The notes under the pieces are model-generated. The model saw only the letters and a program-made list of their open reading frames with translations, was not told the origin of the DNA and ran no database searches. Of a DNA stretch of 64,000 nucleotides, positions 26,570 to 34,825 are shown one piece after another (position 1 is the stretch's first letter; each line of letters starts with the position of its first letter). This stretch comes from an uncultured Chthonomonadaceae bacterium (GTDB taxonomy: Bacteria > Armatimonadota > Chthonomonadetes > Chthonomonadales > Chthonomonadaceae): contig CAWIEK010000044.1 in assembly GCA_963835065.1 (NCBI GenBank), forward strand, positions 256,001 through 320,000, written 5' to 3'. The position numbers and the translations under genes are program-made.

Positions 26570-29500
26570 ATGTGGCACATTGAATTGCTGGGCAGATTGC
26601 GCGCTGCGGACGGGGAGCGCGAAATAACCCGCTTTCGCGCCGCGAACATGGCAGCTTTGTTCGCTTATCTTGCCTATTACGCGGACAAACCCCATCCCCG
26701 CGAAATACTGATTGACGAAATGTGGCCCCGCGCCGCTTCCCTCGATGCCGGGCGCAACAACTTGAGTACGGCGCTGAACAACTTTCGCCACCGTCTTGAA
26801 CCGCTCGGCGTTGCGCCGGGAACCGTGCTGCGCACCGACCGGGCCACCGTGCAGTTCAATCCTGACGCTATTCACACGGACGTAAGCGATTTCAAAGCCA
26901 TCCTGCAAAAAGCGGGCAAAGCGCAAAACCCGGAAGCCCGCGCCGAACTGTTGATACAGGCGCTCGGAGTGTATCAGGGCCACCTCCTGCCCGGCCTCTA
27001 CTACGATTGGGTGTTGCGGGAACGCCAGCATCTCGCCGCGTTGTTCGAACGCGCCGCCCACCAACTCATCGCGCATTTCAAAACGACAGGCCAGCCCGAC
27101 CTTGCGATTGCCTATGCCGCGCGCCTTGTTGCCGCAGCCCCTACCGGTGAGGAAGCGTGTCGAGAACTCATGCGGCTTTACCGCGCGCAGGGCCAGTATG
27201 ACGCCGCGCTGGGCCAATATTCTCTGCTGGAGCAGAATCTCGCCCGCCTGCTCGACGACAAGCCCTCCCCGGCCACCCGCGCCCTTGTCGCAGAAATAGA
27301 AAAGGAGAAGAGGAGAGGGGGAGAGGGGGAGAGGCAGGGAACAGGGAACAGGGAACAGGGAACAGAAGAAGAGAAGACGGAAGACGGAAGACGGAAGACG
27401 GAAGAAGCCAATCCTCAATCGGCAATCGGCAATCGGCAATCGGCAATTTCCTCAACCCATATCACCCTGCTGCTGACCGACATTGAGCGTTCCACGCTGC
27501 AATGGCTGGCGGGAGGAGAAAAGTTTGCCGACGTGCTGGCGCAGCATCATGCGCTGCTGCGCGACGTTTTCCGGCAGCATGGCGGGGTGGAAGTGAAAGA
27601 AACGGGTGATGGGTTTATTGTCGTGTTTGAAAGCATTGCGAACGCGCTGGCAGGCAGCACTCAGGCGCAGCAGGCGCTTGCTGCGCGCCAGTGGCCGATG
27701 GAAATGGACGCGCCGCGCGTCCGCATGGCGCTGCATACCGGCTATGTGCAGTGGGATAACGGCGATGCGCGGGGATTGGCGATTCACCATGCCGCGCGCC
27801 TGAACGAAGCCGCGCATGGCGGGCAAATCCTGTGTTCCGAAGCCGCGTTTCAAATGGCGGCGAATACCAACGATCTGGAAAAGGACACTTTAGAAAAGGA
27901 CGTTGCGGAAACGGGTGTTCGCTTGAAACCGTTGGGCGTGTACCGCCTGCGCGATTTTCCCGACGCGCAAAGGCTGTTTCAGGTTTGCTGGCCTGATATG
28001 CCCAGAACTGATTTTCCGCCGATTAAAGCCCTGCCCGGCCATGCCGACCTGCTGCCCCTTTCCGCCACGCGATTTGTCGGGCGCGAACAGGAATTGTCGC
28101 ATATTCAACTGCTGCTGTCACCTTCGACGCCGGAGAAGAATGTCCTTCCGTGCCGCCTGCTCACGCTGACCGGATTGGGCGGCACGGGCAAAAGCCGTTT
28201 GGCGCTGGAACTCGCGCGCCGGATGGTGGAACCGATGGAAGGCGCGGTGTGGTATGCGCCGCTGGCAGACGTGGCGGATGCGCGCGGCATGGCAGACGCG
28301 CTGCGGCAGCATTTGCGCCTGCCCCGCGCGCCCGGAGCCGACCTGCTGGATCAACTGACCGGTTTGCTTTCCCGTCGCCCCTCCCTGCTCGTCCTCGACA
28401 ACTTCGAGCAATTGCTGACCGCGCGCAACAGGGGAGAAGAAGACAACACGCCGGAAGAGGGGGCAGAAGAGGAAGGCAGAAACGGCAGGGAGGACACAGC
28501 CAGCGGGGAAAATACTCTGGATGCAGCCGCGCTCGTGGGAGAATTGCTGGAGCGCGCGCCGACGCTGACAATTTTGGTTACGTCCCGCCATTTGCTGCGA
28601 TTGGCGGAGGAGCGGGAATTCGCCGTGCCGCCAATGCAAGTCCCGGACGTGGTTCCACCGGTTGCGCCGTCTCAGCACAACGCTTATCTGGCGAAATTGA
28701 ATGGGTGTGAAAGTGTGCGCTTGTTTGTAGACCGCGCGCAGGACGCGAGGGCAGATTTCCAGTTGACCGCAAAGAACGCGCCCGTCATCGCCCAACTATG
28801 CGCCCGCCTGGAAGGCATTCCGCTTGCCATCGAACTGGCCGCCGCTCGCGCGCAGATACTGACGCCCGCGCAAATGCTGGCGCAATTGGAAGACCGTTTC
28901 AAGTTCCTGGTTACTCGCTACCGCAACATCACGCCGCGCCAGCGTTCCCTCCGCGCCTCGCTCGATGTGAGTTACGCCCTCCTATCGCCCGCCTTGCAGC
29001 GCTTTCTCGCCCAACTCTCAATTTTTCGGGGCGGCTGGACATGGGAAGCGGCGGAAGCCATCGCTAAGGATGAAGGCGGAAGGATGAAGGATGAAGATAG
29101 GGAACAGGAAACAGGGAACAGGGAACAGACCTCCCCAACACCCAACACCCAACACCCAACACCCTCTTCATCCTTTGATGTTCTGGACTATCTGGCGGAA
29201 TTGCGGGACAGTTCGCTGGTGGTGGCGGAAGAGAGTGGGGAGCAAATACGGTTTCGGCTGCTGGAAACCCTGCGCGAGTACGCCGACGAGCAGCTTTCTG
29301 AGCAGCAGCGGGAAGGATTACGGCAGGCGCATTATGCCTATTATTTGGGAATGGCCGAGCAGTCCGAGCCGGAACTGAACGGTCCCGATCAGGCCGAGTG
29401 GCTGAACCGCCTGGAAAGCGAGCATGACAATCTGCGCGCGGCCCTGCGCGGAACGGATGACGCCGAATCAAGGTTCCGTTTGGCGGGCGCGCTGTATCGC

Positions 29501-33100: not shown

Positions 33101-34825
33101 ATGCCCGTTTCATTCCACACCGTTTCGCAGCACATGACGTTTGTAGATCAAACGCCGCTGCACCATGTCCAGAACGCGAATTTCCTGCTGCCCGGACAAA
33201 CGTATGATGTGTTTATCACGCTTGCCAACAGCGACGCCGTGGAAGCGCTTGGCGTTCAAGTTCACGTCAACCATTCCGCGTTCGGCATCGGCCTGCCGGG
33301 AGGGGATTCGTACATCGCGCAGCCTTCGCCGGTCAACGTGCCTCCGGCTCTGGACGGCGACCCCGGCCTGGCAACGATTCAGTTCCAGTTCACCGCGCCC
33401 GCCGCGGGACACGGCTGCCTGTACGCGACCATCAAGCCGAACGGCCCCGGCCTGTCGCAAAATATCACCGTGTACAGCGTCGTGCCCGGCGCGAAAACCC
33501 TGCTGTCGTTTCTGGTTTACGGCGACCTGAATACTGCCGAAAAGATGACGCTGAATCTGACCGAACGGCTTGACAACGGCAGCCTGGTTCCCGCCGCCAA
33601 TTCCTGGCAGCCCCTGCTTGTCCCGCCGACGGACCTGACGGGGAGCGCCACTGCGGTTTCCATGCCCGCGCCGCTTACCGTGAACCTGGGCAAGGGAAGC
33701 GTGTACTCCATCGGGCTGCAAGTCGCCGTGCCGAAGACCGCAACGCAGGCGCATATCTTCCACATCACGGGAACGATCAAAACGCCGGGTGACGCGGGCG
33801 AGGTGGACATCCGCGTGGAGCCGACGGCGACAAACGCCACGCCCCCGCATCCCTACGTCAGCGGCGGCTACCATAGCCCGGACATTATTCTCATTGATCC
33901 GGCAACACATCTGGCTGTGCCTCTGTTCGGCGATCCGGGCGACCCGAACACGATCCTGCGCCCCAATACCAATTACGGGTTTCAGGTCGTTGTTCATAAC
34001 GATTCGCCCACGCCTGCGGTCAATACCGTTGTGCGCTTCTGGATGTGGGATTCGCTGTCGAAGATCGGAACACCTGTTGATGTGCAAAGCGCCACCATTC
34101 CGGCCAATGGGCAGGTGGTCGTGGTTTCCGAACATCCGTTCCTCAGCGCGCCGGAGGGCCGGCATCGCTGCGCGGCGGTGAGCATTTACAACTCGCAATC
34201 GGTCTGCCAGAACGACAGCACGGTGTTTTACGATGCGAACCAGAACGCCTTTCACCACCTGCCGGATGCGGGTACGGACGGCAACAAGAGTTGCGCGGCG
34301 TGGCGCAACACCGACTCGAAGTTCATTTACATCGGCAAGCCCTGGCAAATCAATCTGGATATGGGCTTTGTACTGCCCGGCCCCGGCCCGGTGGAACAGG
34401 CCGTGCGCGTGGATGTTACCACGCAGCATGTGCCTGCCGACCATGCCGCGCAGCCCGCAGTGATACAGGCCGCTCAAACCCTGCGCGAACTCGGCGGACA
34501 CGCCCTTGTGCCTACCTTCCTGCTGACAGCCGTACGCCCGACTTTGCCGCTCATTGACCTGGGCGTTAAAATTCAGGCAGCGGGCCTGAAGACCGCGCCC
34601 ATTGCGCCGCCCGCCAATGCGAATCCGAAAGCGGTACAGCCTGTCTCCCTGTCGGTGACGCTGCCTTCCGGCAGGCCCGCGCCGATTGCGATCAACGGCA
34701 TCACGCCCGCAGACGCGAAAGCGGGAGACATGTATCTGGTAGAAGTGGCCGCAACCTATCCGCAGGATCGAAACGGTACGAACAATGTCGTTCGGTTCAC
34801 CCACGCGCTGGTCGTCCACAGTTAG
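33101..34825 (+). CDS. Hypothetical protein with duplicated Ig/CARDB-like beta domains
   Basis: AAAGG RBS; internal similarity between LLPGQTYDVFITLANSD and LRPNTNYGFQVVVHNDS; SPDI motif; no obvious signal peptide. Confidence 0.7.
   Translation: MPVSFHTVSQHMTFVDQTPLHHVQNANFLLPGQTYDVFITLANSDAVEALGVQVHVNHSAFGIGLPGGDSYIAQPSPVNVPPALDGDPGLATIQFQFTAPAAGHGCLYATIKPNGPGLSQNITVYSVVPGAKTLLSFLVYGDLNTAEKMTLNLTERLDNGSLVPAANSWQPLLVPPTDLTGSATAVSMPAPLTVNLGKGSVYSIGLQVAVPKTATQAHIFHITGTIKTPGDAGEVDIRVEPTATNATPPHPYVSGGYHSPDIILIDPATHLAVPLFGDPGDPNTILRPNTNYGFQVVVHNDSPTPAVNTVVRFWMWDSLSKIGTPVDVQSATIPANGQVVVVSEHPFLSAPEGRHRCAAVSIYNSQSVCQNDSTVFYDANQNAFHHLPDAGTDGNKSCAAWRNTDSKFIYIGKPWQINLDMGFVLPGPGPVEQAVRVDVTTQHVPADHAAQPAVIQAAQTLRELGGHALVPTFLLTAVRPTLPLIDLGVKIQAAGLKTAPIAPPANANPKAVQPVSLSVTLPSGRPAPIAINGITPADAKAGDMYLVEVAATYPQDRNGTNNVVRFTHALVVHS

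Follow-up and report, generated by a model that had tools for sequence, protein, structure and literature searches.

The closest described system to the locus treated here is AfsR of Streptomyces coelicolor with the afs box of afsS (8HVR, 8K60, 8JKE), at which an 11-bp repeat spanning -40 to -19 is occupied by two SARP domains that also make contact with sigma region 4, with the NOD and TPR domains acting as inhibitors (PMC10936776). Large SARP–STAND regulators are numerous, and a 2026 preprint places its survey of them under the heading 'unknown regulatory targets' (bioRxiv 10.64898/2026.09.02.748808). Here we analysed a 64,000-nucleotide stretch of DNA (the window, whose own positions are used below) from an uncultured Chthonomonadaceae bacterium of the phylum Armatimonadota (assembly GCA_963835065.1, contig CAWIEK010000044.1, positions 256,001 to 320,000 of the forward strand), in which a gene starting at 26570 encodes a SARP–cyclase–STAND–TPR regulator and is followed by two repeat-bearing promoter-like sites, P1 and P2. 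Comparative evidence gives good support to the view that both sites are probably read by the neighbouring SARP-type regulator, and we put at roughly 80% the probability that it is a one-component activator that binds the P1 and P2 repeats and recruits RNA polymerase to the genes behind them. The features of the regulator are as follows.

26570..30451, + strand: regulator gene, 1293 amino acids (Pfam, family profile, motif positions)
Residues ~1-100: OmpR-type winged helix (Trans_reg_C weak on its own, E 0.069)
26750..26791, + strand: recognition helix GRNNLSTALNNFRH, whose S66/T67 align with AfsR R87/T88 (profile alignment)
Residues 104-243: BTAD (Pfam E 2e-18, above cut-off)
Between BTAD and the cyclase-like domain: low-complexity linker
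27461..28010, + strand, residues ~298-480: class III cyclase-like domain (Pfam Guanylate_cyc)
STAND NTPase: Walker A 535-542, Walker B 606, sensor-1 668, GxP 749, LLE ~897-899 (Pfam AAA_16 and motif positions)
Residues ~1000-1240: TPR array (Pfam TPR)

An N-terminal OmpR-type winged helix followed by BTAD places the protein in the SARP family, and the added STAND nucleotide-binding domain and C-terminal TPR array give it the same build as AfsR. The winged helix is weak in Pfam, but a 21-sequence family profile matches AfsR (8HVR/8K60/8JKE, E ~2e-18 to 2e-17) and EmbR (2FEZ), and spans AfsR residues 30-262, the entire SARP domain, at E 2e-17. An earlier note on this DNA, made from the letters alone, had described a SARP–cyclase–STAND regulator, and these domains bear it out. 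EmbR and the OmpR/PhoB/ToxR activators have the same DNA-binding fold and direct-repeat geometry; unlike them, the window regulator carries no receiver, FHA or membrane domain, and its input is predicted to arrive through the STAND–TPR part.

From AfsR it differs in an inserted cyclase-like domain and, at the latch position, in LLE (RFRLLETLREY) instead of F/Y-HD; this LLE is tentatively, and not by a structural alignment, equated with the MHD position. HD occupied the latch in 0 of 83 scored relatives, 49 of which have MLE and 18 LLE, in contrast to the Actinomycetota set, which retains the HD motif (bioRxiv 10.64898/2026.09.02.748808). The recognition helix reads R87-T88...R92 in AfsR and Ser-Thr...Asn here. 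Also unlike the AfsR case, the source genome (G000) holds 18 SARP-domain paralogues, and the regulator falls far below the cut-off of the AfsR orthologue model NF053617 (44.7 against 1430 bits). The afsR and afsS genes are adjacent, as are regulator and presumed targets here; the targets here are exported-looking proteins, whereas afsS encodes a small activator of antibiotic synthesis. The AfsR-like large SARPs of Actinomycetota likewise form expanded paralogue families of three-part architecture, many outside biosynthetic clusters; the survey covers Actinomycetota only and, in its accessible text, gives no helix-to-site rule (bioRxiv 10.64898/2026.09.02.748808).

The cyclase-like domain matches Ma1120 (E 1e-12) and LipJ (E 6e-9). 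By alignment to Ma1120 and GRESAG 4 it retains five of six canonical residues (D304, K343, D347, D399 and R410); the two Asp, Lys, Asp and Arg of the mycobacterial class III cyclases Ma1120 and LipJ/Rv1900c are kept; at H406, GRESAG has Asn and Ma1120 Ala. The domain may make or bind a cyclic nucleotide. A simple motif count found it in only 5 of 118 long relatives, and it is therefore not required for the basic circuit. Mycobacterial cyclase–ATPase–helix–turn–helix (HTH) proteins such as Rv0386 carry a LuxR-type HTH at their C-terminal end; in the window regulator the order is SARP domain at the N-terminus, then cyclase, then STAND domain, with TPR at the C-terminus. Fusions of cyclase and STAND domains are known. 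About a dozen cyclase–STAND–TPR genes of the source genome have no SARP domain (for example C30:40931-43678, C51:5302-8151 and C40:9192-12005), and a downstream site above 11 bits was present at 0 of the 9 that were checked. The regulator gene also carries in-frame low-complexity inserts at 27300-27450, 28430-28520 and 29060-29175, made of short tandem repeats of the GGGAACA, GAAGACG and CAACACC types; they resemble intergenic repeats of the same genome, and several are shorter or missing in the same-genus genome G002.

Two repeat sites behind the regulator

The sites and the structures next to them are listed here.

30537..30571, + strand: P1, 9-mers at 30537-45 and 30548-56 (11-bp period), 9-nt spacer ending in G, -10-like hexamer TAAGAT at 30566-71
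30578..30603, + strand: hairpin at the predicted 5' end of the P1 transcript (z -3.6)
31458..31500, + strand: intrinsic-terminator-like hairpin with U tract between the two units (z -6.9, 0 of 200 shuffles)
31536..31570, + strand: P2, 9-mers at 31536-44 and 31547-55 (11-bp period), 9-nt spacer ending in G, -10-like hexamer TAGACT at 31565-70

P1 reads TTGTAAGGA-gt-TTGTAAGGA-9 nt-TAAGAT and P2 TTGTTAGGA-ga-TTGTTAAGA-9 nt-TAGACT, with the repeat consensus TTGTWARGA; letters and positions agree with the exact alignment of two promoters reported in the earlier note, as does the terminator that it placed between the units. As at SARP target promoters, the direct repeats of 11-bp period take the -35 position; measured from the -10, their placement deviates from that of the afs box by no more than one base, the hexamers and the starts (~30578 for P1, ~31577 for P2) being predicted. 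A promoter scan called no sigma-70 -35/-10 pair at either site. The genome-wide motif search and the comparison of synteny that the earlier note proposed were both run. In the 8.0-Mb source genome the strict pattern has two matches, P1 and P2, and the repeat part without the -10 returns the same two; the exact pattern was absent from the 200 other genomes of the phylum searched. Because the pattern was derived from P1 and P2 themselves, independent tests were added in the form of matches in G002, conservation of the footprint and a matrix built from other loci.

In the same-genus genome G002 the orthologue of the regulator is 69% identical over the first 249 amino acids, its frame being split in two in the assembly. 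At up to one mismatch the pattern has exactly two matches in that genome, both within ~1.1 kb behind the orthologous regulator: the P1 counterpart TTGTTAGGA-at-TTGTAAGGA-9-CATACT and the P2 counterpart TTGTTAGGA-gt-TTGTAAAGA-9-CAGACT. Between the two genomes 17 of the 18 repeat bases are identical at each site, compared with 5/40 and 7/40 bases of the upstream flanks and 21/40 and 14/40 of the downstream flanks. A further comparison genome, G001, has no pattern match and no close orthologue among its matches (best E 4e-50). Behind the G002 regulator follow P1, a 33%-identical copy of the 30728 gene, a terminator-like hairpin and P2; the hairpin is retained (z -5.2) with two compensatory stem changes, read by eye, and in the window a consensus terminator scanner gave no call at 31458-31500. 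Behind the G002 P2 stand genes for an FG-GAP protein and a BTRD1-repeat protein, and the protease is not there. The conserved part is thus the regulator, P1, the 30728 gene, the terminator and P2, and the P2 cargo is exchangeable.

Several candidates for further operator elements were rejected. No further half-site occurs in 26001-35100, which removes a third operator ahead of the immunoglobulin (Ig)-like gene at 33101 and an autoregulation site. A 14-nt direct repeat directly above P1 (30500/30521, spanning 30500-30534 at 21-bp spacing) is out of helical phase and absent from G002. As for a distant regulon, scoring with a matrix of the four orthologous sites brings up further repeat pairs (as high as 24 bits), but none of the 13 other rows listed has a -10-like hexamer at the same spacing, the nearest being AAAACT at C49:596637. 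The bases ATGCGC follow just downstream of both P1 and P2, and the hairpin at the P1 start has a similar counterpart in G002 (z -2.1). The predicted P2 start coincides in both genomes with an ATG (ATGCGCGC..., reading MRAD; window 31577-32011, L034 9663-9788) that opens a frame of 144 amino acids overrunning the protease start here and of ~41 amino acids to the next start codon in G002; it is either a leaderless upstream frame or merely a conserved 5' stem. No known RNA family was found in 26000-36000.

Sites and recognition helices across the family

The SARP domain was matched in 41 of the 42 genomes of the family. From the 150 SARP matches listed out of 350, 80 regions selected for long open frames gave 80 intact regulators, among which the frameshifted G002 orthologue does not count. 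A motif-free scan for any 7-mer repeated at 11 bp and followed by a -10-like hexamer was positive in 26 of 78 downstream flanks, as against ~1 in shuffles (maximum 4 in 30 rounds), 4 in the antisense downstream direction, 5 of 79 upstream in sense and 13 upstream in antisense, where divergent genes lie. A stricter anchored scan gave 20 of 78 downstream flanks compared with 9/470 and 47/3057 ordinary gene ends of the source genome, and matched at 5 of its 18 paralogues, two of these matches being poor-looking. By a crude heuristic that misses the protease at 31647, an exported-looking product is encoded by the first gene behind the site in 27 of 42 family cases, compared with 1171 of 3765 background open reading frames (31%). 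A further near-identical operator, as at P1/P2, is present at 4 of 49 relatives' loci. Within the source genome other SARP paralogues have their own adjacent repeat promoters, at C43:10549, at C57:121746, on C52 just behind 3633 and upstream of C49:377260. The survey is confined to one phylum, and two Anaerolineales genomes gave only 4 matches. The earlier note had presented the module as one outside the classic Streptomyces context; the locus is no one-off, the arrangement being common in the SARP–STAND family of this phylum.

The type of repeat follows the helix of the neighbouring regulator. Repeats end in ACG/ATG where the residue at the AfsR R87 position is Arg and in GA/GG where it is Ser, and G at -23 occurs in 2 of 15 Arg sites and 10 of 13 Ser sites (Fisher p 0.0016, which overstates the independence of the sites). 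With two matrices trained on the first set only (14 Ser/Asn and 15 Arg sites) and a 13-bit threshold fixed before the held-out set was inspected, 12 sites emerged from 42 held-out rows (41 distinct, the duplicate lying under the threshold), and 11 of them had the type expected (p 0.01), with 4 wrongly oriented sites besides; among 40 regulators from families outside the class there were 10 sites, 9 of them matching (p 0.03), and 1 in the wrong orientation. Pooled by leave-one-out, 49 of 121 SARP–STAND–TPR regulators have a site in the correctly oriented flank and 8 in the wrong orientation, and the repeat type agrees with the residue-87 class in 47 of the 49 (40 label permutations: mean match 0.49, maximum 0.72). 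Mutual information is highest for residue 87 and base -23 (z 14), a column favoured by the choice of sites through residue-87 classes, and next for residue 85 and base -26 (z 7); the pair of residue 88 and base -25 is weak (z 2.7), yet A stands at -25 in all 14 half-sites of regulators with Arg-Val helices. The AfsR contact residues used for orientation were taken from PMC10936776 and PMC11301090.

With Ser66-Thr67 the window regulator belongs to the class consistent with its Ser-type sites. Of 16,013,090 positions scored with the Ser-type matrix from other loci, P2 ranks 1st (26.1 bits) and P1 4th (20.3 bits), the Arg-type matrix giving them 12.9 and 1.9 bits. A regulator of another family (L163) has nearly the same helix and the site CTTGTAGGA-CCTGTAGGA. 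A search of mostly open literature, within the text available, returned no paper that deals with SARP–STAND operators of this lineage or proposes a rule linking their helix to the site.

Proposed wiring and its alternatives

What can be read directly from sequence comprises the domain architecture, the presence of P1 and P2, which are unique in the genome and conserved in G002, the terminator, and the agreement of residue 87 with repeat type across the family. By analogy with AfsR, the repeats would stand in for the -35 element of each promoter, two SARP domains would lie next to each other on them and touch sigma region 4, and the regulator would be held off by its STAND–TPR part until a signal releases it. 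P1 would then drive a single-gene transcript for a predicted exported 235-residue protein, and P2 would serve as an independent, exchangeable cargo slot, here filled by a predicted secreted papain protease with perhaps some read-through into the Ig-like gene. The earlier note had the neighbouring protein activate both the 30728 and the protease genes; the linkage in G002 and the family rule favour the regulator as the probable reader of the sites, whereas the protease turns out to be replaceable cargo. SARP binding to 11-bp repeats is already known from AfsR, and this locus adds to it another lineage, exported cargo that can be exchanged, an inserted cyclase, a latch position without HD and a candidate specificity rule.

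Several observations weigh against this wiring. The HD latch of AfsR is replaced by LLE; a detectable site accompanies only 49 of the 121 pooled regulators and 10 of the 40 outside the class, and in that most distant set the motif-free scan is weak (8/40 against 5 antisense). A tree of 50 rows requires no fewer than 7 switches of helix state, but its starred (well-supported) branches yield only 2 independent pairs (sign test p 0.5), and shared ancestry could therefore inflate the match. The two AfsR structures disagree on whether R87 makes a backbone contact (PMC10936776) or a base-specific one (PMC11301090). Two other paralogues in the source genome have the same NNLSTAL helix, and ranks 2 and 3 of the Ser-type scan precede an OmpR response-regulator/kinase operon and its downstream gene on C46.

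The shared helix, common to 3 of the 18 SARP-domain genes of the source genome, would let P1 and P2 be SARP operators whose main reader is a different Ser-Thr paralogue (C43:10568 or C6:14233) or the three paralogues acting as a pool, and the divergent site of the C43 gene itself, CCTGTAGGG-GGTGTAGGA, resembles them. We regard this as quite improbable, given that in G002 the orthologue is accompanied by both sites, which are found nowhere else in that genome, that G001, which has no close orthologue, has no match, that the C43 paralogue has a site of its own and that the C6 frame is interrupted in the assembly; cross-talk from paralogues may nevertheless add to local control. Binding by an OmpR/PhoB-type response regulator of a two-component system, with the STAND gene an incidental neighbour, appears very improbable. 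OmpR-type domains do bind side by side in the same manner (PMC11301090), the source genome has 6 strong Trans_reg_C genes, and two high-scoring sites lie at the C46 locus; but the C46 repeats have another sequence (TCAGG/TCAGA), more than two adjoining sites would be expected of a global regulator, and across the family the repeat type tracks the helix residue of the adjacent SARP gene. The C46 promoters (C46:29764 and C46:32380, minus strand) have the same geometry before the operon and the next exported-looking gene; they are likely that two-component system's own operators, and are a reminder that other winged-helix activators use this geometry.

That the regulator binds the repeats and represses, or that the likeness of P1 and P2 is a mere trace of local duplication, we find hardly credible. 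The repeats do lie across the -35 region, so that a protein bound there might obstruct polymerase, and the shared ATGCGC fits a common origin; yet with no sigma-70 pair called there is hardly any basal promoter for a repressor to act on, AfsR activates from this very position (PMC10936776), and the repeats are conserved between the two genomes where the flanks are not. The same wiring could serve another purpose, a defence response mounted by the cassette once the STAND–TPR part detects a phage or a competitor's molecule; this too is unlikely, though less so. In its favour, the locus is flanked by DNA methyltransferase genes, a methyltransferase-like gene and an ATPase accompanied by a small partner lie close by in G002 (read by eye), and STAND–TPR proteins include phage sensors (PMC12803255). 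Against it, when compared with the defence-system models of PADLOC as a candidate relative of Avs and its kin, the regulator matches only a generic TPR model and the three cargo genes match none; that source, citing AfsR papers, places transcriptional regulators among the non-immune STANDs (PMC12803255), and the targets in the family are mostly exported-looking proteins.

On activation by the adjacent regulator a wider picture can be built, to which we would give even odds. The phylum would hold plug-in cassettes, each an NLR-like SARP–STAND–TPR activator with its own adjoining operator written in a small protein–DNA code, in which residue 87 would set base -23 and residues 85 and 88 would tune -26 and -25. 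Exported cargo would be swapped behind the operator, and dozens of paralogues per genome would form largely insulated sensor-to-surface circuits with targets readable from sequence; here an active cyclase would tie the switch to cyclic-nucleotide signalling. If adjacent repeats are operators and one helix residue predicts the repeat type, regulator targets become assignable from sequence, and each cassette could be used as a reporter to find the signals of bacterial NLR-like transcription factors.

Cargo genes and surroundings

The genes and structures behind the two sites are the following.

30728..31435, + strand: 235-amino acid protein with signal-like N-terminus, no Pfam or NCBIfam family
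31647..32939, + strand: C1A papain-family protease, 430 amino acids (PF00112 E 9e-33), RR-containing signal-like N-terminus
32954..33044, + strand: two GC-rich hairpins without strong U tract, between the protease and Ig-like genes
33101..34825, + strand: all-beta Ig-like protein of 574 amino acids with ~four Ig-like sandwiches, no named family (AlphaFold, predicted local distance difference test (pLDDT) 84)

Among 1.84 billion representatives the 30728 protein has two credible relatives, P0164 (the G002 orthologue) and P0165; a third candidate, P0166, was discarded as a low-value repeat match, and the fold prediction (pLDDT 38) is unusable. The protease, named as such in the earlier note, is confirmed by PF00112 and by an intact Q153, C158, H329 and N347, the Gln, Cys, His and Asn set of papain family C1A, all four being invariant in 60 of 60 aligned family members. 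It has 672 relatives; among 60 related genomes, however, just 2 gave matches, weak and partial ones. Its N-terminus, read by eye, is NRRRALQ...GFAQ and the genome encodes TatC, so Tat export is plausible; a twin-arginine pattern occurs within the first 35 residues in 5 of 120 protease-family members, and the nearest relative, P0045, has SRRALL slightly further in.

Partial read-through from the protease gene into the Ig-like gene is possible across the two hairpins. The earlier note had offered the Ig-repeat protein as a further target: its all-beta, multi-domain Ig-like character holds, but the gene has no half-site of its own and no signal peptide was found on the protein. Foldseek gave only generic matches to tandem Ig-like proteins (template-modelling scores up to 0.19). 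The protein has 42 hits including itself and one weak partial match among 60 related genomes; a single-sequence scan found no relatives, and alignment found 12 and 32 loci. None of these 44 loci carries a relative of the protease or of the SARP domain, and 1 has a STAND fragment. A fixed association of protease, Ig-like protein and regulator was rejected on these counts and on the different P2 cargo of G002, and with it the self-contained signalling-effector module that the earlier note had proposed. The Ig-like protein's C-terminal half, a module that has no name, recurs in unrelated genomes as a fusion behind kumamolisin-type proteases or Kelch repeats (L137, L151, L153, L157, L144; L123, L146, L148) and at one locus lies behind a weak C39-like peptidase; its placement behind proteases suggests a role as a protease accessory.

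The ABC-transporter/regulator block has DNA methyltransferase genes on both sides (20966-22051 and 35403-36860), and two paralogous open reading frames of ~117 codons (MNRE..KIIELLES..KRPAM) lie a short distance apart at 20150-20506 and 22048-22398. G002 has different restriction- or defence-like neighbours, and the region therefore looks variable. In the 34990-35342 region a sigma-70-like promoter, TTGACA-17-TATCCT, precedes an open reading frame of ~93 codons with a weak NUMOD3 match and marks the end of the module.

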